The position numbers were made by a program, and so were the translations under genes. Shown here one piece after another: positions 9,892 to 35,945 of a DNA stretch of 64,000 nucleotides. The notes under the pieces are model-generated. The model saw only the letters and a list, made by a program, of their open reading frames with translations, did not search any database and was not told the origin of the DNA. Source of the stretch: a virus. Its lineage: Duplodnaviria > Heunggongvirae > Uroviricota > Caudoviricetes. Location of the stretch: IMG/VR virus record IMGVR_UViG_3300023174_004816, positions 1 to 64,000 of that record, one strand, 5' to 3'. Position 1 is the stretch's first letter. The number at the start of each line of letters is the position of its first letter.

Positions 9892-10556
9892 TGCTTGAAA
9901 CCTGTTGCGATATCCTTGTAGATGCATACAAGCGTAACTGGATTACCAGTCGTGATGGAAATATTTCTATACGTCATCACGACCGTGATCACTTTTACAT
10001 TACTCCCAGTGGTGTACGTAAACAAACCATGCAACCAGATCAGTTTAAAAAAATTCTGATCAAACCACCTAATTCTTGGAACGAACTAGGTACTGGTCTA
10101 TTAGCTGATCGGTGGGGATGGAAAGAGTTGCCTTACAGTGATATCAGTTCCAATCTAAAACCCAGCGGAGAACTTCCTCTGCACTTTGGTTTACAAAAAC
10201 AAATGGGACAACATCGCGGAGAAGTACGAGTGGTAGTGCATGTACATCCTACCTACTGTATCGCTGCCATGCATGCTGGAATAGACTTAAGCACTGTCAG
10301 TAACGCCTTTCCAGAGCTTAATCGCTACACTCGAGTGGCACCCAATGTTGGAGATGTTCCGCCAATCAGTCAAGAGCTGGCTGATCAGTGTCACAAAAAC
10401 CTACAGCTAGACAATGAAGGTAACATTGCCTATGACATAGTGGGCATCAAAGGGCACGGTGTTGTGGCCATTGACACAACTCCCTGGCGAGCCTATGAAC
10501 ACATAGAACGCTTAGAACACATTTGCAAGATTGTACTTGCTTCAGGAAAATATTAA
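9891..10556 (+). CDS. class II aldolase/adducin-like protein (putative)
   Basis: VVVHVHPTY resembles the zinc-binding HxH motif of class II aldolases and epimerases; start overlaps the aceA stop (TAATG). Confidence 0.4.
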   Translation: MLETCCDILVDAYKRNWITSRDGNISIRHHDRDHFYITPSGVRKQTMQPDQFKKILIKPPNSWNELGTGLLADRWGWKELPYSDISSNLKPSGELPLHFGLQKQMGQHRGEVRVVVHVHPTYCIAAMHAGIDLSTVSNAFPELNRYTRVAPNVGDVPPISQELADQCHKNLQLDNEGNIAYDIVGIKGHGVVAIDTTPWRAYEHIERLEHICKIVLASGKY

Positions 10557-10557
10557 C

Positions 10558-10827
10558 ATGCTTACAGTATATTCAAAAAAACATTGTCCATTTTGCGATC
10601 GAGCCAAGGCATTGTTGACTAACAAAAATATCGCGTTTGAAGAAATCAAAATAGACGAGAATGAAAATGCTCGAGAGTTTATCATGGAGCAAGGGCATCG
10701 CACAGTTCCGCAGATTTATCATCAAGGCAAATTATTTGTTGAAGGTGGGTTCCAAGGTTTAAGTAAGCTGAGCACAGACGAGATTCGTACTCGTATGGGC
10801 CTTACTGATAACCTAGGAACCTTATGA
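10558..10827 (+). CDS. glutaredoxin (NrdH/Grx-like, CPFC active site)
   Basis: KKHCPFCDRAKALL active site; the ORF track starts at 10531, but ATG 10558 with an upstream AGGAAAA lies just after the previous stop. Confidence 0.8.
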   Translation: MLTVYSKKHCPFCDRAKALLTNKNIAFEEIKIDENENAREFIMEQGHRTVPQIYHQGKLFVEGGFQGLSKLSTDEIRTRMGLTDNLGTL

Positions 10828-19930: not shown

Positions 19931-21130
19931 ATGAGTGACCAATCTCAGTATGAAAATTGCAGTTTTTGTAACAAACACAAAGATGAAGTAAAAAAGTTAA
20001 TTGTTGGCAACGAAGTGGCCATATGCAATGAGTGTGTGGAACTTTGCCAGAGTCTGTTAGATGACGATGTCAAAGAACGTCCCAAAGATGCCACAGACAT
20101 CGATCCTCAAGAACTCAAATCCTATCTTGATCAATATGTGATTGGGCAGGATCGAGCCAAGACTGTGCTCAGTGTGGCCATTGCCAATCACTACAAAAGA
20201 ATACAACACAGTACCTCAGACATCGAAATAGACAAAGCCAACATTCTCATGCTTGGCCCTACCGGGTCGGGAAAAACACTGTTGGCCAAGACAGTGGCAC
20301 GATATCTTGATGTACCGTTTGCCATTGCTGACGCTACATCAATCACTGAAGCTGGGTACGTGGGCGATGATGTAGAAAGTCTCATACAACGACTGCTCAC
20401 TGCCGCTGGCGGTGATGTAGAAAAGTGTCGCCGTGGTATCATATTTGTAGATGAGATAGACAAGATCGCTCGCAAAAGCGAATCAGCATCCATCACCAGA
20501 GACGTATCGGGCGAAGGTGTTCAACAGGCCTTGCTCAAAATGGTAGAAGGCACTGTGTGTCGCATACCAGCCGCAGGTGGTCGCAAACATCCAGGCGGGG
20601 ACATGATTGAAATTGACACTCGCAATATTCTATTCATCGCGGGTGGTGCGTTTGTTGGCCTAGATCAAATAGTTAAAAAACGCATGTACGGTACCAGCAT
20701 GGGTTTTGGAGCCACAGTGTCACAGCCCAAAGAAGTCAGTCTTGAGCATGTGGTTCCCGACGACTTGGTCAAGTTTGGACTGATACCTGAATTTGTAGGG
20801 CGATTCCCTAGCTGGGTCAACTTGGATGGTCTGACCACAGCTGATCTTGTACATGTACTCACAGATACCAAGAATAGTTTGATCAAACAGTATCAGCATT
20901 TATTTGCAGTAGACAAAGTTGAACTGGATTTTGAAGATGATGCGCTGACAACCATTGCACAACGATCAGCAGAGTTTGGCACAGGAGCTCGTGCTTTGCA
21001 CAGCGAGCTAGAGCGTGTGCTAATGCCTCATATGTTTAACATCAAACGCTATCGAGACCGCGGCATAAACCGCGTAGTTATTAACAAAGAACAAATAAAT
21101 AATCCTACACCCGTGTACAAGGAGGAATAG
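19931..21130 (+). CDS. clpX: ATP-dependent Clp protease ATPase subunit ClpX
   Basis: N-terminal C4 zinc finger (CSFCNKH...CNEC), Walker A GPTGSGKT, sensor motifs; 399 aa. Confidence 0.9.
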   Translation: MSDQSQYENCSFCNKHKDEVKKLIVGNEVAICNECVELCQSLLDDDVKERPKDATDIDPQELKSYLDQYVIGQDRAKTVLSVAIANHYKRIQHSTSDIEIDKANILMLGPTGSGKTLLAKTVARYLDVPFAIADATSITEAGYVGDDVESLIQRLLTAAGGDVEKCRRGIIFVDEIDKIARKSESASITRDVSGEGVQQALLKMVEGTVCRIPAAGGRKHPGGDMIEIDTRNILFIAGGAFVGLDQIVKKRMYGTSMGFGATVSQPKEVSLEHVVPDDLVKFGLIPEFVGRFPSWVNLDGLTTADLVHVLTDTKNSLIKQYQHLFAVDKVELDFEDDALTTIAQRSAEFGTGARALHSELERVLMPHMFNIKRYRDRGINRVVINKEQINNPTPVYKEE

Positions 21131-21131
21131 T

Positions 21132-21344
21132 TTGGGAAAACGTGTAGAAGTCCGTGATGGCAATGTAGAAAAAGCCCTGCGGAAATTTAAGAAAAAAATA
21201 CAGGAATCTGGTCTGCTGTTCGAACTCAAAGAACGTGAGCAGTATATCAAGCCCACCACTCAGCGCAAGCTCAAGGCATCTGCGGCTAAAAAACGCTGGC
21301 AAAAACATCTACGCAGTCAGCAACTTCCACCCAAACAGTTTTAA
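21132..21344 (+). CDS. rpsU: 30S ribosomal protein S21 homologue
   Basis: GKRVEVRDGNVEKALRKFKKK...YIKPTTQRKLK resembles bacterial S21; TTG start 7 nt after an AGGAGG. Confidence 0.8.
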   Translation: MGKRVEVRDGNVEKALRKFKKKIQESGLLFELKEREQYIKPTTQRKLKASAAKKRWQKHLRSQQLPPKQF

Positions 21345-21562
21345 TGTACATTGTTTTTGATGTAAGATTTCGACACGAATTAGACACAGTCAAAGAGCAA
21401 ATCGCTCAGTGGGCTGAAAAGTATCAAATACAGTACACTCAAAAAACCATAAAATATCAGCACCGCTTGGGTCTCAATCGAGACAAAGAATTTACTCTTT
21501 TCTCAATGACCTGGGAAGGTGTTCCTTACAAAATAGTCAATATCGGCAACGAAGGATATTGA
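21344..21562 (+). CDS. hypothetical protein
   Basis: 72-aa ORF overlapping the S21 stop. Confidence 0.4.
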   Translation: MYIVFDVRFRHELDTVKEQIAQWAEKYQIQYTQKTIKYQHRLGLNRDKEFTLFSMTWEGVPYKIVNIGNEGY

Positions 21563-21651
21563 CAACTCTTGAAAAATCTGTTATAAATATACATGTAGAT
21601 GCCGATGGTCGGGTCTACATAGTCAAACTTGCTTAAACAAAGGAGAAAATT
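21559..21651 (+). promoter_or_regulatory. TTGACA-17-TATAAA promoter plus structured 5'UTR (ROSE-like thermometer candidate) upstream of hsp20
   Basis: -35 at 21559-21564 and -10 at 21582-21587; hairpin TGTAGA...TCTACA at 21594-21619; UUGCU at 21629-21633 can pair with the SD AGGAG at 21641-21645 with a G-G mismatch. Confidence 0.45.
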
Positions 21652-22098
21652 ATGACTAAAATTACATCCCTAGATCTCACACCTTTTTATCGCCAAGCCA
21701 TTGGCATTGATGGTCTTTTTGATCGTCTCATGCACAACATTGATATGGCCAGTGCAAACAATGGTGGTAACAACTACCCTCCCTACAACATCATCAAAAC
21801 TGGTGAGGATTCCTATGAAATCCAAATTGCTGTAGCAGGGTTTGCCGAAGGTGAAGTAGAACTCAACTTCCACGAAGGACAACTTGTGATCACAGGAGAA
21901 AAGAACACAGATGACAGCGACACACAGTACCTACATCGAGGTATCAGTGCCCGTAAGTTCATCCGTACTTTCCAACTCAGTGATTATGTGGAAGTTCGTG
22001 AAGCCACTATCAAAGATGGTATTTTGACAGTGAGTTTGCAACGCATTGTGCCCGAAGAAATGAAGCCAAAGCGTATTGCAATCTCCTACGCAAAATAA
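21652..22098 (+). CDS. ibpA: small heat-shock protein Hsp20 (IbpA-like)
   Basis: YPPYNI, IAVAGFAEGEVEL alpha-crystallin domain, collinear with E. coli IbpA. Confidence 0.85.
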   Translation: MTKITSLDLTPFYRQAIGIDGLFDRLMHNIDMASANNGGNNYPPYNIIKTGEDSYEIQIAVAGFAEGEVELNFHEGQLVITGEKNTDDSDTQYLHRGISARKFIRTFQLSDYVEVREATIKDGILTVSLQRIVPEEMKPKRIAISYAK

Positions 22099-22158
22099 TA
22101 TAATGTAGTAAATACAGTGGAGGGCATGTTGCTCTCCACTCAATAGCAAGGGAAAAAG

Positions 22159-22473
22159 ATGTCCGATACAGCTACGCAAACAAGAACTATAATACAACCC
22201 AGAGAAGATCTCAAAGAACCTCCCATGTTCAAGGTCATATATCTCAATGACAATCAAACTTCAATGGAATTTGTAATCGAAAGCCTGGTAGCACACTTTG
22301 ATTATAACCCTGCCACAGCAGAAAAACTCACTGTAGACATCCATGAAGATGGGTCAGCAGTGGTAGCAATATTGCCCTATGAGTTAGCCGAACAAAAAGG
22401 CATCGAAGTCACTGTGGATGCTCGAGGCGCTGGTTATCCACTACAAGTCAAACTTGAGCCTGATCAGGTTTAA
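22159..22473 (+). CDS. clpS: ClpS adaptor protein
   Basis: PPMFKVIYLNDNQTSMEFVIESL core resembles ClpS. Confidence 0.85.
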   Translation: MSDTATQTRTIIQPREDLKEPPMFKVIYLNDNQTSMEFVIESLVAHFDYNPATAEKLTVDIHEDGSAVVAILPYELAEQKGIEVTVDARGAGYPLQVKLEPDQV

Positions 22474-24319: not shown

Positions 24320-24769
24320 ATGAAAAATATAATAATTGCGGCGCTGGGCATCGCAATAATGCCTGTTGTTGCTGTTTCTGCACCACTGCCAGACTTTAGT
24401 TTTAAAAGTCCTGCTTTTAACGGAGTAGGTTATAGCAGTCACGTCCTCACAATCGAGAATCAAGAAGCCACACGTCGTAAAGCTCTTGAAGACAAAATAC
24501 AATCTGCCATAGACAAAGCGGCTGCTGATGCTAAAAATACAAATCTGGCAAAGTTTTTAAACAATCTAGAAAGTCGTATCTATGCTCAGATCTCGCAGAA
24601 CTTGGCCACGGCTATGTTTACTGCTGGAACTTCAACGTCGGGTTCGTTTAACTTTGAAGGCAACGTAATAGAGTGGACCAAAGACAGCACCAGTGTTTAT
24701 CTCACAGTGAGAGACACAGTGGGCAATACCACACAGATCACAGTGCCATTGGGACAGTTTACTTTCTAA
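24320..24769 (+). CDS. csgF: curli assembly protein CsgF-like
   Basis: Signal peptide then FSFKSPAFNGVGY (cf. CsgF FQFRNPNFGGNPNNG) and C-terminal QITVPLGQFTF (cf. TIQVSGLQNNSTDF); AGGAG RBS. Confidence 0.6.
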   Translation: MKNIIIAALGIAIMPVVAVSAPLPDFSFKSPAFNGVGYSSHVLTIENQEATRRKALEDKIQSAIDKAAADAKNTNLAKFLNNLESRIYAQISQNLATAMFTAGTSTSGSFNFEGNVIEWTKDSTSVYLTVRDTVGNTTQITVPLGQFTF

Positions 24770-24770
24770 T

Positions 24771-26015
24771 ATGAAAAAAGTATTAACTATATTCTCTTTG
24801 ATCACAATATTAAGTGGATGTGCCATCATCCAAAGCACCAGCTTGAACGAAACAGATCCCACAGTGTCCGCACAAAGAGAGAATATCAAAAAAGATTTTG
24901 ATACTCTTCCGCCACCAAGTTCGGGCAAACCAATCAGTGTGGCAGTTTACAGTTTTAAAGATTTAACCGGCCAACGTCGTCCACAAACCAATGTGGCAAG
25001 TTTATCAACAGCAGTCACACAAGGTGCTGAAGCATTTTTAATCAAGGCACTACAAGATGTTGGCAATGGTCGTTGGTTTGATGTAGTTGAGCGTGTGGGC
25101 ATAGATAACCTGACCAAAGAACGTCTGATCATTCGTCAGATGCGTGAAGCCTACGAGGGCGCCAACGCTAAACCACTCATGCCCATGCAGTTTGCTGGCA
25201 TGATCATTGAAGGTGGTATTGTTGGGTACGACTCATCGATCAACAGTGGTGGCGCTGGTATGCGAGTGTTCGGTATTGGTAAACAAACACAATGGACACA
25301 GGATGTGGTCACAGTAAGCCTACGTGCTGTGAGTGTAAACACAGGCAAAGTCTTGGTCACAGTTGCAGTACAAAAAACTATTTTAGGATCTGCTGATTCA
25401 GTGAGTGCATTGAAATTCTATGACATGGGCACCAAAGCCTTTGAAGCAGAAACAGGACTCACGATCAATGAGCCCGGAACTTATGCAGTGAAATCAGCCA
25501 CTGAAGCCGCTGTGGTAGAGTTGATCAAAGAAGGACAACGCAAAGGAGTATGGGATTTTAAACCGGAGACACCACCCCCAACACCACAAGTTCAGTCTGG
25601 ATCTCCGGCTCCAGTGATTGCCAGCGAGATTAAGACTGTTTCACCGCAAGTCAAGGAGAACAAAAATGAGTTGGTTCAACCACAAACCCCCAAAGCATCC
25701 GCCGCTGCCACCACAACAACACCCGCACCGGTTCAGCCCAATATCGGAAAAGATACGCGAGGGGACAAAACAGAAAGTAAACCCGTTGTCACAAAAACAG
25801 AAGAACCCAGACCGCTGTTCGGACAACGAAGATTAAAAGAAGCTGAGTTCATTTATAAAGAACCCAATGATCGTAGTCAAAAAACTTGGCAGTTCAAAAA
25901 AGGCACAGTGGTAGACATCAGACAACCAGGCAGCGATGGTTGGGTCAGAGTCACTGACAGCGAGCAACGAGGGGGCTGGATTCGTGTGGAACAACTAGAA
26001 GAACTTGGCCGTTAA
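24771..26015 (+). CDS. csgG: curli secretion channel CsgG-like lipoprotein with a C-terminal SH3-like extension
   Basis: Lipobox LSGC; SVAVYSFKDLTGQ, GGIVGYDSSINSGGAGMRVFGIG and TVSLRAVSVNTGKVL collinear with E. coli CsgG; extra Pro/Thr-rich linker plus an SH3b-like C-terminus. Confidence 0.8.
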   Translation: MKKVLTIFSLITILSGCAIIQSTSLNETDPTVSAQRENIKKDFDTLPPPSSGKPISVAVYSFKDLTGQRRPQTNVASLSTAVTQGAEAFLIKALQDVGNGRWFDVVERVGIDNLTKERLIIRQMREAYEGANAKPLMPMQFAGMIIEGGIVGYDSSINSGGAGMRVFGIGKQTQWTQDVVTVSLRAVSVNTGKVLVTVAVQKTILGSADSVSALKFYDMGTKAFEAETGLTINEPGTYAVKSATEAAVVELIKEGQRKGVWDFKPETPPPTPQVQSGSPAPVIASEIKTVSPQVKENKNELVQPQTPKASAAATTTTPAPVQPNIGKDTRGDKTESKPVVTKTEEPRPLFGQRRLKEAEFIYKEPNDRSQKTWQFKKGTVVDIRQPGSDGWVRVTDSEQRGGWIRVEQLEELGR

Positions 26016-26149: not shown

Positions 26150-26971
26150 TTGATGGAAATGAAAAACAGAATGACAGGCGCCGGTGGGTTGTCGAGTAAA
26201 TTACTCACCCTAATGTTGGTGTTAGGCATTAGTTGTACTGCAAATGCTGTAGACAACAGCATATACATAGATCAAAGCGGAGACACCGCCACGATCAACA
26301 TTACCCAAGACGGTTCTACCAACCGTGTCAAGGGTATACTGCCTAGTGGAAACCCAGGATTGACCACAGACCCAGCAACAATCACAGGCGATGGCATTTT
26401 GGTCAACGTCCAACAGGTTGGCAATAACAACACATTAAATCTTGGAGTTAATACTACCACTGCTTCGGGAGGAAATCCTACAACAGTCAACTACTCAGTG
26501 TCAGGCAACAACAACCAGGGTATGATTAACTTAAACAATGATGGTCAAGGTACCAATCAAAGCACTACATTAGATATCACACAGACCGGTGGAACCAACG
26601 TTGCTGATGTGGGTATCTTGGGAGCCAACAACAGTCTGACAGTGGATCAGAGCGGCGGCGGCGCAACTATCTATGCTAGAATCAATGCCGATGACACCAT
26701 GTCTACAGTGACAACCAGTGGTGGCTCGGGCAACGAAGTCAGCTTAAATCTCACAGGCAACAAAGGACAAGCAGATGTAACCATTGTTGGTGGATCCAAC
26801 ATTGTAGGGATCACACAAAGCGGTGGTGGTACATTGGGTCATAAGTCCACTGTTAACCTTGACGGGTCCGGTAACAATGTAGCCATAACTCAGGGCGGTA
26901 CCATTGACACCAATGTCAATTTGAAAAGTGTAGGATCTGGTAATGCTTTTACTATCAACACTCATAACTAA
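26150..26971 (+). CDS. curlin-repeat (CsgA/CsgB-like) secreted protein
   Basis: Signal peptide; repeated Q-x-G-x-x-N curlin repeat units (IDQSGDTATINITQDGSTN, VDQSGGGATIY, ITQSGGGTLG). Confidence 0.55.
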   Translation: MMEMKNRMTGAGGLSSKLLTLMLVLGISCTANAVDNSIYIDQSGDTATINITQDGSTNRVKGILPSGNPGLTTDPATITGDGILVNVQQVGNNNTLNLGVNTTTASGGNPTTVNYSVSGNNNQGMINLNNDGQGTNQSTTLDITQTGGTNVADVGILGANNSLTVDQSGGGATIYARINADDTMSTVTTSGGSGNEVSLNLTGNKGQADVTIVGGSNIVGITQSGGGTLGHKSTVNLDGSGNNVAITQGGTIDTNVNLKSVGSGNAFTINTHN

Positions 26972-26980
26972 GAGGGAACA

Positions 26981-28108
26981 ATGAAACTATGCAAGCTACT
27001 ACAATGCGCACTCTTGCTGAGTATATCACTGAACTGCATCGCGGCGATAGGTACCATAACAGAACAACTCAATGCGCCGGGTTCGATACAACGATCCACG
27101 GCAACAGTGACGGGGACCAAGGGGACCAAGGTGGAGATGCAGGACTCAGTCAAGACCCAGCAGGGCAAGCTGGGGATAACCTTTGACGATCAAACTCGTG
27201 TACAGGTCAACGAGAACTCCAAGTTAGTCATTGACAGCTTTGTATATGATCCTAAAAAGGGTGCGGGTAAACTGGCAGTCAATGTGGCCTTGGGCACAGT
27301 GCGTTATGCTTCGGGACAGATTGCTAAAAATAGTCCACAGAATGTGGCAGTCAACACACCAACTGCCACTATATCAGTTCGTGGCACAGATTTTTCAGCC
27401 ACAGTGGATGAGTTGGGGCAAAGCACTATTATTTTGCTACCTAGTTGTCCTAATGATCGCAGTAATAGAACTGCACGAGATATTGAGCGTGATTGCAAAA
27501 CTGGCGAGATTGTGGTAGAAAGCGATGCAGGACAAGTTATTCTCAATCAACCTTTTCAAGCCACAAGAGTGGACAGTCGCGGTGCCGCCCCTAGTGCGCC
27601 AACCATACTAAAGCTCAGTGAAGATGCCATTGGCAATATGTTGATTATGTCGCCACCACGCGAACTCAGAGAAGATAACACTCGTAACCGTGCAGAACTT
27701 AGAGGAGCCTTGGACATAGACTTCCTCAAAGAACAAGGCCTGGTCAATGCTCTTGACGCACAAGAAAAAGAAATATTTCAAGACAAGTTGAGTCGTAACT
27801 TTTTAGATCAAGACTTCTTGGCCAACATCTTGGACATTGTGAACGCACAGTTGGCCGCACAGTTAGACTTGTTGAATAAAAACAACAACAGCAAACTATT
27901 ACCTGATTGGTTACCATTGACTGGTGTCACTGTGGATCTTCAAGAGCCCAAAGTAACCCTAGCCAGAGACGATGGTAGCAACATCATGAGTGTTACAGTT
28001 CCAACCTCACAAAATCCCACAGTGATTATGTCACAGGGGTGGGTCATGGACATTAAGAATCGAGTCAACAATGGAGGCAGCACAACTATTACGCTGATAC
28101 AAAAATGA
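26981..28108 (+). CDS. secreted FecR-domain-like protein
   Basis: Signal peptide; beta-rich region (VRYASGQIAKN...ISVRGTDFSATVDELG) resembling a FecR/DUF4880 fold; assignment tentative. Confidence 0.35.
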   Translation: MKLCKLLQCALLLSISLNCIAAIGTITEQLNAPGSIQRSTATVTGTKGTKVEMQDSVKTQQGKLGITFDDQTRVQVNENSKLVIDSFVYDPKKGAGKLAVNVALGTVRYASGQIAKNSPQNVAVNTPTATISVRGTDFSATVDELGQSTIILLPSCPNDRSNRTARDIERDCKTGEIVVESDAGQVILNQPFQATRVDSRGAAPSAPTILKLSEDAIGNMLIMSPPRELREDNTRNRAELRGALDIDFLKEQGLVNALDAQEKEIFQDKLSRNFLDQDFLANILDIVNAQLAAQLDLLNKNNNSKLLPDWLPLTGVTVDLQEPKVTLARDDGSNIMSVTVPTSQNPTVIMSQGWVMDIKNRVNNGGSTTITLIQK

Positions 28109-28851
28109 TAGAAAAAGATCATTACAAAGCCAGTCTTGAATACTGGCGACGTTGGGAAGCAGAAAAACAAGCATTGTCCAAGCGAAATCTAATAAACGGT
28201 TGTTTTATAGCTGTTGGATTATTTGCAATGCCTTTTGTCATACTATTTGCTTTGATTGCAATGACTGGCAAGGCTCACGCACAAAACCAAATAAATCAAG
28301 GTCTGAATCCTGGCGTGGCAATTCCTGCTGCCAGCACAGTCTATGTTGATCAAATAGGTAACTACAATACCATTAACATAGAACAAAAAGACACAGTGGG
28401 GCACTCAGCCACTGTTACCATGGGCAAACTCAGCGATGTTGATCATACCACAGTTTCTATACTACAACAAGGCACAGGAACAAAAACAGCATCAGTTGAA
28501 ATAAAAGCCGGCACATACAACAATGCTGTCATCAATCAAGATGGGGCAGGCAATCACTTGGCCAGCATACAGAATCTCAATGGCAGCAACAACGGCATAA
28601 CTGTCACGCAAAGCGGAGCAGGACAGCATGAGTTCAACGTGATTGGCGGAGCAGGGACCACAAACAGCAACAATTCTATCACTGCCACACAAAGTGGAGG
28701 AATAGGTGCAGAGAAATGGTTTAATGTTTGGCTCAACGGTGCCAACGGCGCCACTGTCAATGTACAACAAACAGACAACAATCCTGGGCAGGCATCATTT
28801 AACATACAATGTCAAACAGGTTGTGGAGCCTGGAGTTACATACGTCAATAA
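28105..28851 (+). CDS. second curlin-repeat (CsgA-like) protein
   Basis: Signal/TM segment then VDQIGNYNTINIEQ, INQDGAGNHLASIQ, VTQSGAGQHEF and ATQSGGIGAE repeats. Confidence 0.5.
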   Translation: MIEKDHYKASLEYWRRWEAEKQALSKRNLINGCFIAVGLFAMPFVILFALIAMTGKAHAQNQINQGLNPGVAIPAASTVYVDQIGNYNTINIEQKDTVGHSATVTMGKLSDVDHTTVSILQQGTGTKTASVEIKAGTYNNAVINQDGAGNHLASIQNLNGSNNGITVTQSGAGQHEFNVIGGAGTTNSNNSITATQSGGIGAEKWFNVWLNGANGATVNVQQTDNNPGQASFNIQCQTGCGAWSYIRQ

Positions 28852-28928
28852 CTCAGTGTTTATTTTGTTGAGAAAACACTTTAAATACTTTACATGAAGT
28901 AACGTCTAGAGCTAGACTAACATAATGT

Positions 28929-28957
28929 TAAGCCCCTTTCGGGGCTTTTTTATTTCT
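28929..28957. terminator. bidirectional rho-independent terminator
   Basis: AGCCCCTTTCGGGGCT stem-loop with TTTTTT on the + side and an A-run on the - side, between convergent genes. Confidence 0.7.
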
Positions 28958-29639
28958 TAAGCAAAAATTTCTTTTTTAAATGTAACCGAACTTGGTTGTA
29001 TTGTAACGCAGTGATTGCCACAGCGGCGGCCCAGGGCACTACCTTCACAGCCCATTCTGCAGTTTGTGCCCACCAACTGGCCAACAACGGTTCTTTGGTG
29101 GCCATTTGCACAGCAACCGCAAACAACACAAACGATCCCACAAACACACTGTCTGGAAAACGTTTGAGAATCTTACTGACCAATCCAGCTCCAAACAAAA
29201 TGATTGGCACTGAGATTAGCAAGCCAGCAATGACAAGAACAAAGTTTCCATTGGCTGCCGCGGCAATTCCTAGAGCATTGTCTATGCCCATGACAGCGTC
29301 GGCAACTACAATGGTGCCGATGGCACCCCAGAATGTGTCTTTAGCTTCAACGTTGTGTTCTTCGTTGTTGAAAGCCAATTTCCATCCTATCCACAACAAC
29401 GCCACAGCACCAATTAAACGCAGTCCAGGTATCATTAAAAGATATGTCAGTGCGGCCACACTAACAAAACGTATGGCCACAGCGCCAAAGGTTCCCCAGA
29501 AGATTGCTCGCTTTCGTAAATGTTCCGGAAGTTTGTTGGCTGCCATGCCAATGACTAATGCGTTGTCACCGGCCAACACAATGTCTATTAGTATGATAGC
29601 GAGAAATGCCCACAGGGCTTGTAATGTAAATAACTCCAT
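28950..29639 (-). CDS. TerC-family integral membrane protein (Alx/YkoY-like)
   Basis: ILIDIVLAGDNALVIGMAA and VADAVMGIDNALGIAAAA duplicated TerC motifs; AAGGAG RBS. Confidence 0.85.
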   Translation of the reverse strand: MELFTLQALWAFLAIILIDIVLAGDNALVIGMAANKLPEHLRKRAIFWGTFGAVAIRFVSVAALTYLLMIPGLRLIGAVALLWIGWKLAFNNEEHNVEAKDTFWGAIGTIVVADAVMGIDNALGIAAAANGNFVLVIAGLLISVPIILFGAGLVSKILKRFPDSVFVGSFVLFAVAVQMATKEPLLASWWAQTAEWAVKVVPWAAAVAITALQYNQVRLHLKKKFLLKK

Positions 29640-29644
29640 TTTAA

Positions 29645-29818
29645 TACTCCTTAAAAGAGTATATCATGGATGTCATTCCAATGAATGAGGATTATACGAT
29701 CCATAATATACTATGATATTATGGTCTTGTCCGGAACCTATTTCCTTATGCACCGAGCCGTTAAGCCGAATTGACGACGCATAAAACTCTTATATTAAGA
29801 GTGGACTACTCCCCATGC
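29645..29818 (-). ncRNA. candidate yybP-ykoY (Mn2+) riboswitch in the TerC leader
   Basis: Minus-strand leader begins UGGGGAGUAG (29806-29815), then the hairpin CUCUUAAUAUAAGAG, then GGACAAGACC; the expression platform AUACUCUUuuaAAGGAGUAU sequesters the SD; ykoY itself is TerC-family. Confidence 0.45.
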
Positions 29819-31899
29819 AAGTATTTAGTAAATACATGATGCTAAAGAAAACTACTATTAAAAAATTACTGGTTAGTCCATGGACAGCATTGTTGACATT
29901 GGCACTTATTTTAAGTATAAGAATCGCAGACCCTACATTTGTAGAAAGCATAAGATTACGATATTTTGACACACTGATCACAGCGCAGGCACCCACTGTC
30001 AACAATATCTATACTGTGAACATTGATGAAGCCGCCCTAGACAAGTATGGACAGTGGCCTTTGCCCAGAGTCAACTACGCAGAAATTGTACAGGATCTAT
30101 ATACCCGTGGCGCTGGACTGGTTGTACTCAACGTGCTCATGGCTGAGCGCGATCGCACTGGAGGTGATGGTGCGCTGGCTGCCATGCTACGACATTATCC
30201 TGTGGTCTTGGGCTCAGTGCCCAGCGCCAAAAACAAAAACACTCCTCGTGTGCCAGGATCAGCTGTGTTGAATCCAGAGTGGATGGATCAGATAGTCACA
30301 TACCCAGGATTGATCGCCAACGTTTCTCAGTTGGAACGCAGTGCCGCTGGTGTGGGCATTGTCAATACCTTGCCAGAAGTAGATGGTGTAAATCGTCGTG
30401 TGCCCTTGATAGTCACAGTTGACAGCAAACTATATCCAGGGTTGGCTCTGGAAACTCTGCGTGTGGCCACAGGCAATGACACTTTCCAGGTCAAACTGTT
30501 CGAAGGCGGCGTTGAAAAGATGCGCTTGCCTGGAGATGTTGGTATACTCAACACAGACAATCTTGGACGCATCTGGATTGACTGGAGTCAGCAATCAAAA
30601 TCAGTGTCACTGACCAGCTTGCCCAAAGACTTTGGTGGTGCTATCGTTATAGTTGGTGCTACTGCCGCAGGCATTGCCAACCCTGTGCCCACCAGCCGTG
30701 GTGCTGTGTTTCCACATGAAGTACAGTCCGCTGTGATAGGTACCCTGGCAAACGGCGTGAATATTCAACGGCCAGACTGGGCGGATGGTGCTGAAATCAT
30801 ATTCATAGCAGTGTTGGGTGTGATCATTATTGGATTATCGAGGTGGACTTATGCAGGTATTCTTATATCTATTGTGGGGATCATTGCCCCTATTGTTGCC
30901 AGTCGTTTGGGCTTCAATGAGTGGCGAATCTTGGCAGACGCAACGGCAAGCACGGCTGGTCTTGTTCTCGTGGCTCTGCATACTTACGGCGTTAAGTTTG
31001 TAAGTGAGTTCTTACAGAAACAAGCCATAAAGAAACAGTTTGCTGGCTACTGTTCAAAAGAAGTGGTAGAGATGCTACAGAAAGATCCAGACTTGATCAG
31101 GCGAGGTGTGCGCAAAGACGTATCAGTTATGTTCAGTGATCTACGTGGCTTCACACCCATTGGTGAACACTACGGCGATGACGTAGGCGGACTAGGCCGG
31201 TACATGAACGGTTACATGGATGCTATCAGCCAACCCATGATGGACAACAAAGGCATGATCATCAAGTATGTGGGCGATGCCTCCATGCACATACATGGTG
31301 CTCCCATTGAAGATCCTAATCACGCTAGAACTATCGTTAGGGTAGGATTGGAGATGTTGGACAAGGTAGACGAGTATACCAAGCTGATGGAAGCACAAGG
31401 CCTGCCACCTGCGGCCATGGGTTGGGGTTGTAATTCAGGTATTGGCTTTATTGGCGAGATGGGTTCAACAGAACGACACAGCTATGACATCTTGGGTGAC
31501 ATGGTGTCAACAGCCGCAAGACTAGAAGCACGTTGTAAAGCCTATGGTGTGTTATGTATCATTGGCGCTGAAACATACAACAGAACCAAAGACGATTTCT
31601 TCTATTTGTTGCTGGACAACTTACAGCCTAAGGGAAAAACAGTAGCAGATTTGATCTACACAGCACTACGTACCAAGGGCGCAGACTACTCAAAAGATCG
31701 AGCACAGCATGAAGAGATGCATGCCCTGTACCGTCAGAAAAAGTTTGACGAGGCCGCCGCAATGTGTAAAAAACTAGCAGGTAACTTTGGCGGGCAGATG
31801 GACAAGTATTACAAGATCTGGATTGAGCGTTGCGAGTTCATGAAGCAACAAGATTTAGGTGATAACTGGAACGGCGAATTTATTGCTCACGAGAAATAA
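29815..31899 (+). CDS. CHASE2-sensor membrane-bound class III adenylate/guanylate cyclase
   Basis: N-terminal TM, ~300-aa periplasmic CHASE2-like region (LDKYGQWPLPR), 2-3 TM helices, then cyclase motifs VSVMFSDLRGFTPIGE and KYVGDASMHIHGAP. Confidence 0.8.
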   Translation: MQVFSKYMMLKKTTIKKLLVSPWTALLTLALILSIRIADPTFVESIRLRYFDTLITAQAPTVNNIYTVNIDEAALDKYGQWPLPRVNYAEIVQDLYTRGAGLVVLNVLMAERDRTGGDGALAAMLRHYPVVLGSVPSAKNKNTPRVPGSAVLNPEWMDQIVTYPGLIANVSQLERSAAGVGIVNTLPEVDGVNRRVPLIVTVDSKLYPGLALETLRVATGNDTFQVKLFEGGVEKMRLPGDVGILNTDNLGRIWIDWSQQSKSVSLTSLPKDFGGAIVIVGATAAGIANPVPTSRGAVFPHEVQSAVIGTLANGVNIQRPDWADGAEIIFIAVLGVIIIGLSRWTYAGILISIVGIIAPIVASRLGFNEWRILADATASTAGLVLVALHTYGVKFVSEFLQKQAIKKQFAGYCSKEVVEMLQKDPDLIRRGVRKDVSVMFSDLRGFTPIGEHYGDDVGGLGRYMNGYMDAISQPMMDNKGMIIKYVGDASMHIHGAPIEDPNHARTIVRVGLEMLDKVDEYTKLMEAQGLPPAAMGWGCNSGIGFIGEMGSTERHSYDILGDMVSTAARLEARCKAYGVLCIIGAETYNRTKDDFFYLLLDNLQPKGKTVADLIYTALRTKGADYSKDRAQHEEMHALYRQKKFDEAAAMCKKLAGNFGGQMDKYYKIWIERCEFMKQQDLGDNWNGEFIAHEK

Positions 31900-32550
31900 A
31901 TGACAAACCCTACTATAGCATTGTTTATACATCAACCAAAATGTTCTATACAAAGTGGCAACGGTATAATACAAGCGTTGGGAGATCATTATAAGTTTAA
32001 AATTTTTACAAAACACAGTTTAGAAAAAGATTTTTTTGACAATATTGACATGGTGGCCTTCCCAGGAGGCACTGGAGATTCAGAAAGTTTTGATTATCTC
32101 ATGTCTGACCATCTTGGTCGTATCAAAGATTTTGTTGACAAGGGCGGCAGATATCTTGGTATTTGCATGGGAGCATACTGGGCAGATCATCACTATTTTG
32201 ATCTATTAGATGAAGTTGAAGCACAACAGTACATCAGAAGACCAGGAACAGACACTCGTAGACCACACCCCAAAGCACTTGCTGTGAACTGGCAAGGACA
32301 AATTGAAAAGATGTATTTTTATGATGGTTGTGCCTTGGTTGGCAATGCTGAAAAGTTTAAAACGATTTCTAGTTATGCCAACGGTGATGCCATGGCCATA
32401 ATACAAAACAGGGTAGGACTAATAGGGTGTCATCCAGAAAGTGAAAAAAACTGGTACACAGAATATCATCAATGGATGCGTCCGCATTGGCATCACAGAC
32501 GCCATCATCAACTACTGCTGGATTTTGTCAATCAGTTGATGGAACGTTAG
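31900..32550 (+). CDS. class I glutamine-amidotransferase-like (DJ-1/BPL_N-like) protein
   Basis: GGRYLGICMGAYWA nucleophile-elbow-like Cys; ATG overlaps the cyclase stop (TAAATG). Confidence 0.4.
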   Translation: MTNPTIALFIHQPKCSIQSGNGIIQALGDHYKFKIFTKHSLEKDFFDNIDMVAFPGGTGDSESFDYLMSDHLGRIKDFVDKGGRYLGICMGAYWADHHYFDLLDEVEAQQYIRRPGTDTRRPHPKALAVNWQGQIEKMYFYDGCALVGNAEKFKTISSYANGDAMAIIQNRVGLIGCHPESEKNWYTEYHQWMRPHWHHRRHHQLLLDFVNQLMER

Positions 32551-32867
32551 CCTTCGCCGGCTGCCGCTGTTTTCTTGTCGTCCTCGTCTGCGACCTGATT
32601 GATTTTTTGTTCAGCTATCACACGTTCGTGATCAATGGTTTTGCCACGTAAATGTAGCACAACATCAACCTTTTGATTTAATCGAATTAAATCGTTGTCT
32701 AACATACGGATACGATCTATCAAGGCAATCAGCACTGTGTTGGCTTCTTTGAGCACAGGTTTGACTTCTTTGGTGGCCCAGGTCCATACATAATAAATCA
32801 TGTACCCCATGCCCCCGGCTGCCACTATGGGAAAGCCGTATTTGTTGATCATTGCCACTAAATCCAT
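32547..32867 (-). CDS. small single-TM protein, paralogue B
   Basis: MDLVAMINKYGFPIVAAGGMGYMIYYV and ALIDRIRMLDNDLIRL; paralogous to 33347-33625; AAAGGAAAAAG RBS. Confidence 0.5.
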   Translation of the reverse strand: MDLVAMINKYGFPIVAAGGMGYMIYYVWTWATKEVKPVLKEANTVLIALIDRIRMLDNDLIRLNQKVDVVLHLRGKTIDHERVIAEQKINQVADEDDKKTAAAGEG

Positions 32868-32880
32868 TTGTCTTTTTCCT

Positions 32881-33027
32881 TTAAAATGCTAACCCAATCA
32901 AACAACCCAACACAAATGCTATGATTGAAAACTTAAACAGGTCATGATCATGCCATACAGGTTGTGTTTTTAAATATTCTTTTGTGTGTGCAGGTAAACT
33001 GTCGTACCATGCAGTCCATTTACTCAT
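32881..33027 (-). CDS. small tail-anchored membrane protein (48 aa)
   Basis: MSKWTAWYDSLPAHTKEYLKTQPVWHDHDLFKFSIIAFVLGCLIGLAF; overlaps the upstream stop; not in the ORF track because it is under 60 aa. Confidence 0.3.
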   Translation of the reverse strand: MSKWTAWYDSLPAHTKEYLKTQPVWHDHDLFKFSIIAFVLGCLIGLAF

Positions 33028-33205: not shown

Positions 33206-33366
33206 TTCTCTTCCTTTATCGTTACAAAATCAACCATCTTTCTAATGGCCTTTTCTTGCTCGTAATAATCTAAACACATTTGAGTCCACTCGTCCCTGTT
33301 GCAGAAAACGTGTGTGCGTTCTTTGGCAGTCCAGGTACGAGGATCACTAGTCACGTCGGGCATCAT
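33142..33366 (-). CDS. hypothetical protein
   Basis: 74-aa ORF. Confidence 0.35.
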   Translation of the reverse strand: MMPDVTSDPRTWTAKERTHVFCNRDEWTQMCLDYYEQEKAIRKMVDFVTIKEEKCDTTIMTGIYQRVVSFLTKN

Positions 33367-33625
33367 TTTTACCGTCCGCTCTCGCTATGCGATTGGTGTC
33401 TGGTTTTAAACCCAGAGCATTGGATACCACTGTGTCAATACGGATCACGTCGTGGTTCATGGTTTTTACACGATTGTCTAGGGCAGTGATTATTCCTGAA
33501 AGTCCTTGTACACTACTCATAACTCCAGCGAGTATGAATTTCAGTGTGAGGAAAATGAAGTAACCGCCAGCGCATGCGGCAGCGATTGGAAAACCAACCT
33601 CGGCCACGAGTTTGAAAAAGTCCAT
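33347..33625 (-). CDS. small single-TM protein, paralogue A
   Basis: MDFFKLVAEVGFPIAAACAGGYFIF and ALDNRVKTMNHDVIRI; paralogous to 32547-32867. Confidence 0.5.
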   Translation of the reverse strand: MDFFKLVAEVGFPIAAACAGGYFIFLTLKFILAGVMSSVQGLSGIITALDNRVKTMNHDVIRIDTVVSNALGLKPDTNRIARADGKNDARRD

Positions 33626-33683: not shown

Positions 33684-34325
33684 TTATTTTTGTGCTAGAA
33701 ATGTAGCAAAACACCAGTGCGCATCAATCACAGTGACCTGGCTGAATCCCACATCGCGCAGTGTTTGTAACCACCAGCTCACAGGCTGTACTTTCATCAC
33801 GCCTATTAGGCTTTGCGCCTTGGCAGCGATTTCTTCATCACTGCATCCCTGTGATCGTTTCCAGGCATGATAGAATCCAATCTGATCAGGGTCTTCGCTG
33901 ACCTTGTCTGAAATCACAGCAAACCCTGAATCATCCAGACTATGATAGATATCTTTGAGATATTGTATTTTGTCGTCAATGAAATGCAGGGTCCAGTTGC
34001 ACAGCACAGCATCATAATTGCCCTGTGGAAAATGATTGCTGTGATGATATGTGGCTATAGAATGATCGCATTTAGACAGCATGGATTCACTGGCATCCAC
34101 ACCGTGTAAATTACGGTACCCTGCTTGATGCAATGTTTCTAGGGTGTGACCAGTGGCGCAGCCAACATCAATCACAGAGCTTGTAGGACTTAAAAAATGA
34201 TCGCACAAACCAACACATTTTTTGATCACCAAATCATAATTGGGTATGTGCTGTCGAGCGTGATTTACAAAATGATCAGCCACGGTCTGATCAAATGTCC
34301 AGGTTTTACCAACGTTTAAATGCAT
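33684..34325 (-). CDS. class I SAM-dependent methyltransferase
   Basis: Motif I VIDVGCATGHTLE, motif post-I LHGVDASE. Confidence 0.7.
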   Translation of the reverse strand: MHLNVGKTWTFDQTVADHFVNHARQHIPNYDLVIKKCVGLCDHFLSPTSSVIDVGCATGHTLETLHQAGYRNLHGVDASESMLSKCDHSIATYHHSNHFPQGNYDAVLCNWTLHFIDDKIQYLKDIYHSLDDSGFAVISDKVSEDPDQIGFYHAWKRSQGCSDEEIAAKAQSLIGVMKVQPVSWWLQTLRDVGFSQVTVIDAHWCFATFLAQK

Positions 34326-35130
34326 GGGCTGTTTCCTTGGGAAATTGTTGACTGTCTACGAAATCATATACCAATTTAGAGCCTTGAGTACTTCTAAGAA
34401 TAAAACGCACAGCATAGCCCGGTGACTGCAAACTGTAAACATCGGGCAATTCTTTTACAGCCTGTTCATTTAATTCAAAATCTGATGACCAACCTAGGTG
34501 AGCAAAAATTTTAGCAAAAGCTGCCATGCTGGGCCGGGCACTGTCGTGCAGTTGGCTACCGCCTTGACTCATTGTTTGTCCACTGGTTTCTATGGATATC
34601 ATGCTTGTTGTTTTCCAAAGATCCATGAGTTCAACATCAGTCTTTTCGGGCCAAATTTCTTGCAGTGCTCGATAAGGATGATAGCTTTCAATTATTACTT
34701 CTTTGCCAATTCTGCAGATATGTTTTATCACTGAGTAATAATCAATCATGGAATATATGCTGCCAGCTATGACAACAACGTCAAAGTGTTCCTGGCAATT
34801 TTCTAAAAATCCAATGATATCTGACTTGATGATCTTCCATTTATCTTGCGGGTAGTAACCACTGAGATTTTGGGCAGATTGGTCAACAAACGCCTGCTGT
34901 AAATCCACACCAGTGTAGTGGTCAGCACCGTGGTCCAATGCCCAGGCACCTGTGGCAGCCACGCAACAACCCAAATCCAGCACTCTTTTTCCAGTGAGAT
35001 CAGTGTTGGCAAACCATAATTGATGACGTACTGCCATTACATCAGCAGTGATTGGCATCATATAGTCTCGAGGTCTTTGGGTTCGGATGTCTGTGGAAAT
35101 GAAATCGGGCTTTGATAAAAAGATATTCAT
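34306..35130 (-). CDS. class I SAM-dependent methyltransferase
   Basis: Motif I RVLDLGCCVAATGAW, then YTGVDLQ. Confidence 0.65.
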   Translation of the reverse strand: MNIFLSKPDFISTDIRTQRPRDYMMPITADVMAVRHQLWFANTDLTGKRVLDLGCCVAATGAWALDHGADHYTGVDLQQAFVDQSAQNLSGYYPQDKWKIIKSDIIGFLENCQEHFDVVVIAGSIYSMIDYYSVIKHICRIGKEVIIESYHPYRALQEIWPEKTDVELMDLWKTTSMISIETSGQTMSQGGSQLHDSARPSMAAFAKIFAHLGWSSDFELNEQAVKELPDVYSLQSPGYAVRFILRSTQGSKLVYDFVDSQQFPKETAHAFKRW

Positions 35131-35176
35131 GGTACCCTATTTAATGGTAGCAAAACCCAAGAGAACAAAAATAATT

Positions 35177-35205
35177 TGACAGCAACCAAAAAAACAGCTA
35201 AAATA
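35177..35205 (+). promoter_or_regulatory. sigma70-like promoter TTGACA-17-TAAAAT with a ~130-nt leader
   Basis: TTGACA at 35177-35182, TAAAAT at 35200-35205; AAGGAGGAAG RBS before ATG 35340. Confidence 0.5.
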
Positions 35206-35339
35206 TAGCTTGTGTCTGTGCCTTTTAGAGCAGTTATCGTAAATATAGCTCTTTTAGAAATATACGCAGTTAACCGTGGTGTTAGGTCTAGTACATATTA
35301 CTACGGTAAAAACATAAACCTGTAAACAAGGAGGAAGTT

Positions 35340-35945
35340 ATGACAGAGACAACATCAAAGTCAGGAACGCACCAAGTTGGCATGGTCAAACTTTTCGTAA
35401 GTCTGCCCCGTGTGATTGGATTGATGATAGTAATGTCAATTTTAATCACTGTCACAAATTTGCGTCTGGATGCGCTGGCATCTAGCAACGAAGGCCAAGC
35501 CCATAGGCAAGGTTTCGTTTCTGTAAGCGACCGCACTAAGCAGTTAGAGTGCTTGGCTCGCAATATCTATTGGGAATCTGCCAACCAGCCTTTTGAAGGC
35601 AAAGTGGGTGTGGCCCAAGTCACGCTGAATCGCGTGGAAGATGGACGTTTTGGAAAAGACGTCTGTGGAGTAGTATATCAAAAGAATGTGGTGTATGAAA
35701 AGGTCATCTGCCAGTTCTCTTGGTACTGCGAGCCCACACACAAGGTGCGTCCTGTGCATCCTGCACTGTGGGACGAAAGCATGGAAGTGGCCAAAAAGGT
35801 CCTGTTGGAAGGATTCCGTTTGCCCAGCTTGAAAGAAGCTCTTTATTTCCACGCCGACTACGTAAACCCTGCTTGGCCCAACATGATACGAGTGGCCACG
35901 TTTGGTAATCATGTGTTCTACAAGAAAAAGGAATCAAAATCATGA
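35340..35945 (+). CDS. membrane-anchored cell-wall hydrolase (SleB/CwlJ Hydrolase_2 domain); endolysin candidate
   Basis: N-terminal hydrophobic anchor LFVSLPRVIGLMIVMSILITV; ECLARNIYWESANQPFEGKVGVAQVTLNRV matches the SleB-family core. Confidence 0.65.
   Translation: MTETTSKSGTHQVGMVKLFVSLPRVIGLMIVMSILITVTNLRLDALASSNEGQAHRQGFVSVSDRTKQLECLARNIYWESANQPFEGKVGVAQVTLNRVEDGRFGKDVCGVVYQKNVVYEKVICQFSWYCEPTHKVRPVHPALWDESMEVAKKVLLEGFRLPSLKEALYFHADYVNPAWPNMIRVATFGNHVFYKKKESKS

Follow-up and report, generated by a model that had tools for sequence, protein, structure and literature searches.

Curli genes carried by phages have been reported in pelagimyophages (Zaragoza-Solas et al. 2020, PMC7029224) and in the OM43 phage Melnitz (Buchholz et al. 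2022, PMC9004378). In the viral type VIII secretion cluster as described by Wittmers et al. (2022), FecR and an adenylate cyclase are conserved additions; the genes show evidence of expression in metatranscriptomes and were traced to Alphaproteobacteria (PMC9599517). The locus described here is a further example of this already published module, found in a lineage of very large phages. It lies in a 64-kb stretch of DNA (positions 1 to 64,000 of the IMG/VR virus record IMGVR_UViG_3300023174_004816, Caudoviricetes), called the window below, and its central gene encodes a membrane receptor with a CHASE2 sensor and a class III nucleotide cyclase. It is rather likely that this cyclase is the signalling output of the phage curli (type VIII secretion)-FecR module, and that the genes on either side of it, for a BPL_N-family protein and a TerC-family protein, are passengers.

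Related parts are also known from bacteria. In Sinorhizobium meliloti, the adenylate cyclase CyaD1 has a CHASE2 domain whose deletion makes the enzyme constitutive, and a gene for a FecR-domain protein, smc02177, is part of the same cyclic adenosine monophosphate (cAMP)/Clr regulon (PMC5498481). In Burkholderia and Pseudomonas, operons that encode a LysM-FecR protein and a CHASE2 histidine kinase have been tied to the control of biofilms (PMC5192318).

The Cyclase and Its Conserved Neighbours

The original prediction, made from the letters of the DNA, described a membrane protein with a periplasmic CHASE2-type sensor and a class III cyclase domain, followed by a gene for a glutamine amidotransferase-like protein. 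Both reading frames exist (Table 1), and a Pfam domain search bears out the two domains of the first. CHASE2 (PF05226) covers residues 29-336 with an E-value of 1.4e-37 and 130.1 bits, above the curated cut-off, and is matched over profile positions 3-256 of 257; Guanylate_cyc (PF00211) covers residues 434-592 with an E-value of 5.9e-13 and 49.2 bits against a cut-off of 21.9. The catalytic domain matched 39 cyclase sequences of the PDB by phmmer, the best at 3.4e-18, and it aligns with the solved adenylate cyclases CyaB (3r5g), CyaC (1wc0) and Cya2 (2w01). By a simple hydropathy calculation, hydrophobic segments flank CHASE2, with one N-terminal transmembrane segment at about residues 17-38 and a transmembrane cluster at about residues 321-368, so CHASE2 would be extracytoplasmic and the cyclase domain cytoplasmic. 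These matches support the reading of the protein as a membrane sensor of the CHASE2 type, borne by a phage and joined to a class III cyclase.

The true start of the cyclase is probably the ATGATG at 29836 and not the annotated ATG. The later start is preferred because homologues are mostly 680-686 amino acids long, with an N-terminus of MMLKK or later, and because a 2-nucleotide deletion in the closest long contig, L012, breaks the cyclase frame 5' of 29836. It is further favoured by the leader of the TerC gene, which abuts the annotated ATG at 29815.

The original prediction overlooked the genes that are the conserved neighbours of the cyclase. Five of them, for CsgF, CsgG, a curlin-repeat protein, a secreted FecR-domain protein and a curlin-like protein, stand 5' of the cyclase on its strand. 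The identical order, CsgF-CsgG-curlin-FecR-curlin-cyclase, is found in Methylophilales phage Melnitz and Pelagibacter phage HTVC008M, and among deposited phages full-length relatives of the cyclase were found only in Melnitz isolates (43% identity) and in HTVC008M (36%). A megablast search of deposited phages with positions 26900-32900 gave no match.

A much larger sample comes from IMG/VR, where a scan returned 268 viral stretches with relatives of the cyclase. Counts anchored on the cyclase use the best 80 of these, which are 67-84% identical; upstream counts are limited to the 62 loci whose upstream sequence spans 7 kb or more, and downstream counts to the 56 that have 5 kb or more on the downstream side. 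CsgG and FecR genes stand 5' of the cyclase and on its strand in 60 of the 62 loci, at a FecR-to-cyclase gap that ranges from 308 to 5,942 bp across viral loci. In a marine viral relative, L255, which has the same active-site signature as the window cyclase (described below), the stop of the FecR gene overlaps the start of the cyclase. Contigs of the window lineage reach about 372 kb, with cyclases 82-97% identical to the window copy, and metagenome contigs of 340-372 kb have cyclase copies 83-89% identical in the corresponding neighbourhood.

The 80 closest cellular relatives of the cyclase, which make up the bacterial sample, are 27-33% identical and mostly from Alphaproteobacteria. In an iterated profile search, 28 of them had a FecR-like open reading frame at a distance of up to 8 kb, and for 13 the distance was no more than 1.5 kb. 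No gene for CsgG, CsgF or BPL_N was found near the cyclase in any of these 80 loci.

A Variable Sensor Joined to a Constrained Catalytic Domain

Sensor and catalytic domain were compared in a cyclase alignment of the window, L001, L002, L003, L090 and L082. Members of the lineage are only 50-58% identical in CHASE2 and 88-94% identical in the linker and catalytic region. The domains also combine differently among phages. The catalytic region of Melnitz is 60% identical to that of the window lineage, as compared with 37% to that of HTVC008M, and the CHASE2 of Melnitz resembles that of HTVC008M, at 60% identity. Conversely, L003 joins a window-like CHASE2 (54%) to a catalytic domain with the canonical Thr and Asn. 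As judged from these alignments, the receptor is a domain mosaic, with a sensor that is fast-evolving or exchanged and a catalytic module under strong constraint. Strong catalytic constraint beside a variable sensor speaks for a functional enzyme whose role inside the cell is conserved. The frozen catalytic domain and fast-evolving CHASE2 would be compatible with an intracellular target that is conserved and with sensing that is specific to the host. This contrast in evolutionary rates between sensor and catalytic domain is new.

A Coupled Change in the Active Site

The cyclase motifs named in the original prediction were located, FSDLRGFT at residues 440-447 and YVGDASM within IKYVGDASM at residues 483-491, in a domain that aligns to class III cyclases as predicted. 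The metal-binding residues Asp442 and Asp488, one in each motif, align with the metal aspartates of CyaB, CyaC and Cya2. Alignment to the solved cyclases assigns the remaining roles to the substrate pair Lys484/Asp558, the transition-state Arg569 and the phosphate-binding Lys606. In class III cyclases, Lys with Asp, Thr or Ser specifies ATP, and Glu with Cys, Ser or Gly specifies GTP. Inspection of the substrate-specifying residues therefore gives an ATP-type pair and cAMP as the predicted product; guanylate cyclase specificity was rejected, given that Lys/Asp is present and not Glu/Cys.

The original prediction had made the cyclase depend on catalytic Asp, Asn and Arg residues, and this part of it stands only in part. 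Asp442, Asp488, Asp558 and Arg569 are present, but the Asn is absent: Ser565, in GDMVSTAARLE, aligns with the transition-state Asn of all five best PDB matches. A residue census was taken from a MAFFT alignment of 78 lineage sequences, the 80 bacterial relatives, Melnitz, HTVC008M and L003. Asp442, Lys484, Asp558, Arg569 and Lys606 are invariant in all 78 lineage sequences and Asp488 in 77, the exception being an alignment gap. At positions 484/558/565/569, all 78 lineage sequences and Melnitz have the signature K/D/S/R, HTVC008M has K/S/N/R, L003 (a second viral type) has K/T/N/R, and all 80 bacterial relatives have K, S or T, N and R.

The catalytic half of the protein (residues 401-694) was also searched exhaustively against 1.84 billion cluster representatives, with 54,120 hits at E-values up to 0.001. 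Among the best 150 of these hits, Asp and Ser at 558/565 occur together only in the 13 or so closest clusters, Asn stands at position 565 in about 130 representative clusters, and neither Asp with Asn nor Ser/Thr with Ser was found. Because the mixed combinations are absent from the best 150, Asp558 and Ser565 appear to be strictly coupled and confined to a small phage clade. This coupled active-site signature is likewise new.

Loss of the Asn raises the alternative that the protein is a pseudo-enzyme, which would make cyclic nucleotide at no useful rate and act as a membrane receptor or scaffold that binds, for example, ATP or a partner. The residue replaced by Ser565 is the one retained in all the bacterial relatives and in most of the top clusters, and for mammalian cyclase it has been reported as essential (Yan et al. 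1997, cited in PMC4215837). This alternative is nevertheless unlikely, since the other catalytic residues are invariant across the lineage, apart from the gap at Asp488, and no other part of the protein is as conserved as the catalytic region. In addition, Ma1120 from Mycobacterium avium is an active adenylate cyclase that has the Lys/Asp pair and Ala in place of Asn, and restoring the Asn lowers its activity (PMC4215837). Therefore, a missing Asn is no proof of inactivity. Given that Ser565 always accompanies Asp558 in the small phage clade, the kinetics may be atypical. It is also conceivable, at similarly low probability, that Asp558/Ser565 reflects a phage-specific remodelling of the pocket that could alter product or regulation, through a non-canonical cyclic nucleotide or very different kinetics. 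If so, infected cells would carry a signal that the host can neither make nor degrade.

A signal other than cAMP, or a Pycsar-like role in defence or counter-defence in place of envelope signalling, is more doubtful still. The PycC profile of PADLOC matches the catalytic domain (3.6e-11), but only over the core that is generic to class III. The joint change to Asp558 and Ser565 is specific to the clade, but Lys/Asp is the canonical pair for ATP. Two positions 3' of the cyclase, L255 carries a gene for a 133-residue protein (10348-10749, + strand) with a weak Pfam match to Tad3, which we take to be an anti-defence family. However, no cyclic-nucleotide-binding effector gene stands beside the cyclase, its conserved neighbours encode envelope proteins, and the gene is on a phage and not in a bacterial defence island. 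A Pycsar-like system was rejected on the missing effector, the phage context and the purine-type substrate pair.

The BPL_N Protein and the Variable Island

The protein encoded 3' of the cyclase was predicted to carry a glutamine amidotransferase-like Cys elbow (GICMGAY), and it does. Pfam assigns it to BPL_N (PF09825) with 44.4 bits against a cut-off of 24.2, and GATase (PF00117) falls just below its cut-off, at 20.8 against 22.8 bits. Its motifs are a G-x-C-x-G elbow and HPE, and Cys89 of the elbow, with His178 and Glu180 in GCHPE, is invariant in 29 BPL_N sequences. The predicted structure has a GATase1 fold: the AlphaFold model has a predicted local distance difference test (pLDDT) score of 81.9 and a predicted template modelling (pTM) score of 0.86, and Foldseek places Pdx2/YaaE, HisH and gamma-glutamyl peptidase on top, with E-values down to 2.3e-10. 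Against solved GATase1 structures the template modelling (TM) scores are 0.64-0.74 at 12-17% identity, and a Foldseek search of BFVD returned only generic GATase1-domain enzymes. The invariance of the Cys-His-Glu triad makes it probable that the protein is enzymatically active, most likely as a Cys hydrolase or glutaminase. It was rejected as a biotin ligase, given that its match to that family is limited to the N-terminal GATase1-like domain and that it has no ligase domain.

The family comprises 5,605 proteins at E-values up to 0.001, typically of 214 amino acids and 64-70% identical. Sequence searches with the BPL_N protein found nothing in the PDB at E-values up to 1, in PHROGs, or by tblastn in 50,697 deposited phage records. 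The protein is stand-alone, with no conserved synthase neighbour in the loci examined. In a sample anchored on BPL_N (80 viral loci, L174-L253, from aquatic viral contigs), the gene directly follows nrdA in 25 loci, precedes nrdB in 27 and adjoins a thioredoxin-like gene in 21. These neighbours hint at a role in nucleotide or redox metabolism and not in signalling.

In the window the cyclase stop does not overlap the BPL_N start, as had been thought; the two are adjacent (TAA|ATG, stop 31897-31899, start 31900). The genes are probably co-transcribed there. The original prediction also suggested that they form a novel signalling or anti-defence pair. As a functional pair, the hydrolase would make, modify or destroy a linked ligand or nucleotide, at a ratio to the cyclase fixed by coupled translation. 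No terminator was found at the junction, and the same arrangement recurs in L012, a 341-kb contig with a 99% identical BPL_N; only this sub-lineage, made up of the window and L012, has the TAA|ATG junction. Among the 80 viral cyclase loci, 15 have BPL_N no more than 10 kb from the cyclase, in five classes of position and strand, and in nine it is within 300 bp (four downstream on the same strand, three downstream convergent and two upstream on the same strand). BPL_N is also adjacent in the L013 contig, upstream of and divergent from the cyclase, and nearby in L003, where a peptidase S11 gene stands between the two. The invariant triad, predicted to be that of an active enzyme, would fit such a pair as well.

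The pairing is very unlikely, however, for position and orientation vary and 65 of the 80 cyclase loci have no BPL_N within 10 kb. A cyclase is within 10 kb in only two of the 80 BPL_N-anchored loci, and the commonest neighbours of BPL_N there are the nrdA, nrdB and thioredoxin genes. BPL_N is absent from the deposited phage records and the bacterial cyclase loci mentioned above, and also from Melnitz and HTVC008M, which have the same cyclase module. Other genes are more common in the same place. Between the cyclase and p106, a gene for a phrog_18771 protein that stands 3' of the cyclase on the opposite strand in 54 of the 56 viral loci, the gap ranges from 4 to 5,308 bp and holds 59 families of open reading frames across viral loci, with Peptidase_S11-like genes in 36 loci, fatty-acid-desaturase-like genes in 29 and BPL_N in 13. 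BPL_N was rejected as a partner of the cyclase on the linkage counts in both anchored samples and on this gap content, and it is better described as cargo of a variable island, as its position and orientation vary, linkage is rare and other genes are commoner in the gap.

TerC, on the other side of the cyclase, likewise appears to be cargo: it was found near the cyclase in only four of the related loci examined (L012, L065, L078 and L093). A third new element is that two cargo gaps could be defined, one on either side of the cyclase, into which TerC and BPL_N appear to have been inserted in the sub-lineage. The phrog_18771 protein may belong to the curli module. NCBIfam gave no family for the cyclase, BPL_N, the second curlin-like protein or p106, and PADLOC gave nothing for BPL_N, FecR or p106.

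A Proposed Signalling Route

The proposal that the cyclase, as a receptor of the inner membrane, reports for the curli-FecR module can be stated as a series of steps. During infection, the phage would equip the host envelope with a CsgG/CsgF channel and with two kinds of secreted protein, the curlin-repeat proteins and the FecR-domain protein. CHASE2 would respond to the FecR protein or to a cue from the envelope that this protein relays. Inhibition of the cyclase dimer would thereby be relieved, and ATP would be converted to cAMP by means of the Lys484/Asp558 pair. The cAMP could then act on a cAMP receptor of the host or of the phage. The FecR protein is likely the periplasmic partner of the CHASE2 sensor, and we infer that the secreted protein modulates CHASE2.

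Several observations weigh against this proposal. In the window, the cyclase is separated from the curli/FecR operon by TerC, which runs in the opposite direction, and by a hairpin that resembles a terminator, so co-regulation of the cyclase with the curli module is not guaranteed there. The replacement of the canonical transition-state Asn by Ser565 means that cyclase activity is not guaranteed either. A phmmer search of the open reading frames of the window with an approximate E. coli CRP sequence found no CRP-like cAMP receptor at E-values up to 10; this search of window proteins covers part of the phage genome. No experimental demonstration of contact between FecR and CHASE2 was found in the literature for any system, and the S. 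meliloti FecR-domain protein is not required for signal perception (PMC5498481). Finally, with the window, L012 and L013 added to the sample, BPL_N and the cyclase occur in four adjacent arrangements, and adjacency is more frequent than for a randomly placed gene.

TerC, Its Leader and Other Features of the Window

The coordinates of the features are collected in Table 1. The strong hairpin with T-runs that lies between the convergent curlin-like and TerC genes probably terminates transcription in both directions and so closes the curli/FecR operon. If so, the cyclase and BPL_N would form a transcription unit of their own, divergent from TerC. Within the operon, the start of the second curlin-like gene overlaps the FecR stop by 4 nucleotides, and its positional equivalent in Melnitz is annotated as a curlin repeat protein. 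The CsgG proteins of Melnitz and HTVC008M are shorter, such that the alignment spans only about 63% of the window CsgG.

The original prediction held that the cyclase shares a divergent regulatory region with a TerC/riboswitch locus. The divergence is there, as TerC and the cyclase are separated by 175 bp, but the riboswitch part is less firm: the TerC leader scores only 12.6 bits against RF00080 (yybP-ykoY), whose gathering score is 45. Rfam gave no match for the L012 copy of the leader, and nothing in the whole window at gathering thresholds. Six phage copies of the leader have the GGGGAGUA motif in common, and compensatory changes were seen in 13 of 23 predicted pairs, in a small sample (these six copies) whose structure was predicted from the same alignment. 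The window copy has an extra insertion of about 70 nucleotides between the aptamer-like part and the TerC start. The leader is probably a divergent manganese (Mn2+) riboswitch.

Table 1. Positions of the cyclase, its neighbours and associated features in the window
Feature	Position	Strand	Basis or remark
CsgF-like curli assembly protein, first gene of the module	24320..24769	+	Pfam CsgF, E 4.9e-14; position matches Melnitz and HTVC008M
CsgG-like outer-membrane channel lipoprotein with C-terminal SH3_4	24771..26015	+	Pfam CsgG 1.4e-44, SH3_4 1.2e-07; lipoprotein signal
Curlin-repeat protein 1 (CsgA/B-like)	26150..26971	+	Pfam Curlin_rpt 2.1e-06; weak NCBIfam matches to CsgA/CsgB
Secreted FecR-domain protein	26981..28108	+	Pfam FecR 6.6e-11; N-terminal hydrophobic signal
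Curlin-like repeat protein 2	28105..28851	+	BLASTP to curlin protein 1, E 2e-04; repeats of the Q-x-G-x-G-N type
Terminator-like GC-rich hairpin and T-run	28930..28947		Just past the TerC stop
TerC-family membrane protein, itself a lineage-specific insertion between the curli/FecR genes and the cyclase	28950..29639	-	Pfam TerC 4.4e-42
Structured TerC leader, Mn2+-riboswitch-like, motif GGGGAGUAG	29688..29815	-	Abuts the annotated cyclase ATG
CHASE2/class III cyclase receptor, 694 amino acids	29815..31899	+	Pfam; phrog_35576 over the full length, E 1.6e-179
CHASE2 domain	~29899-30822	+	
Transmembrane cluster	~30775-30918	+	
Catalytic domain	~31114-31590	+	Followed by a conserved C-terminal helical tail to 31896
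Active-site segment DILGDMVSTAAR	31486..31521	+	Asp558 (substrate-specifying), Ser565 for the canonical Asn, Arg569
BPL_N-family protein of GATase1 fold, 216 amino acids, triad Cys89-His178-Glu180	31900..32550	+	Pfam, model, alignment
p106, phrog_18771 protein of 106 amino acids, far boundary of the island	32547..32867	-	phrog_18771, E 2e-31

A second phrog_18771 paralogue lies at 33347-33625 (- strand), and in Melnitz, HTVC008M and L073 a phrog_18771 homologue stands just 5' of CsgF, on the strand of the module. Beyond the island, at 33684-35945, are genes for two S-adenosylmethionine-dependent methyltransferases (- strand) and a Hydrolase_2 cell-wall hydrolase (+ strand); the same region in related contigs carries genes for peptidase S11, SLT/LysM proteins, UDP-glucose dehydrogenase and a glycosyltransferase. 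The content of hydrolase, peptidase and glycosyltransferase-type genes suggests that the region 3' of the island is an envelope-remodelling neighbourhood.

Phage genes in the window include those for ribonucleotide reductase, an ATP-dependent DNA ligase, ClpX and Hsp20, together with structural-protein-like reading frames. The genes for the ClpX-like ATPase and Hsp20, assigned by Pfam, lie 5' of the curli module at 19931-22473 (+ strand). Small open reading frames between and after them are homologues of ribosomal protein S21 and ClpS, as identified by synteny with L012. Such a set of proteostasis and translation genes is unusual in a phage. A tRNA scan of the window found none.

Comparison with Known Systems

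Curli modules that include FecR and an adenylate cyclase are carried widely by aquatic viruses, and the window shows the module in a second lineage, one in which the phages are very large (contigs up to about 372 kb). Its conserved core (CsgF, CsgG, curlin, FecR and the cyclase) can be separated from exchangeable cargo (TerC, BPL_N, peptidase S11 and a desaturase), which may guide experimenters in the choice of genes to test together. The Asp/Ser signature, and the frozen catalytic domain set beside a fast sensor, offer clues to cAMP signalling that a virus may impose on its host. None of these findings overturns current understanding.

The closest systems are the viral type VIII secretion clusters of the pelagiphages and Melnitz, which have in common with the window the gene order, the phrog_35576 cyclase and a nearby phrog_18771 protein. 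Unlike these, the window has TerC and its structured leader inserted, BPL_N appended and SH3_4 on CsgG. The Asp558/Ser565 signature is present in Melnitz but not in HTVC008M, and the window lineage is distinct from, and much larger than, the known phages with such clusters.

In S. meliloti, CyaD1, CyaD2 and CyaK have the same architecture of CHASE2 and class III cyclase, in which CHASE2 is an inhibitory sensor. There, however, the signal comes from the plant, and the bacterial relatives have Ser or Thr with Asn, and no curli genes nearby. The LysM-FecR/CHASE2 operons resemble the module in that a secreted FecR-domain protein is encoded beside a CHASE2 membrane sensor; they differ in their output, which is a histidine kinase with a response regulator, and in the LysM of the FecR protein. 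The GATase1 fold, Cys elbow and triad of the BPL_N protein are shared with class I glutamine amidotransferases such as Pdx2/YaaE, HisH and gamma-glutamyl peptidase, although identity to these is low, no synthase partner is encoded beside it and its usual neighbours are the ribonucleotide reductase subunits. With respect to the active site, Ma1120 has, like the phage cyclase, a Lys/Asp pair, a small residue seven positions after the Asp and a retained Arg. The small residue is Ala in the actinobacterial enzyme, which was described without a phage or curli context, and Ser in the phage cyclase.

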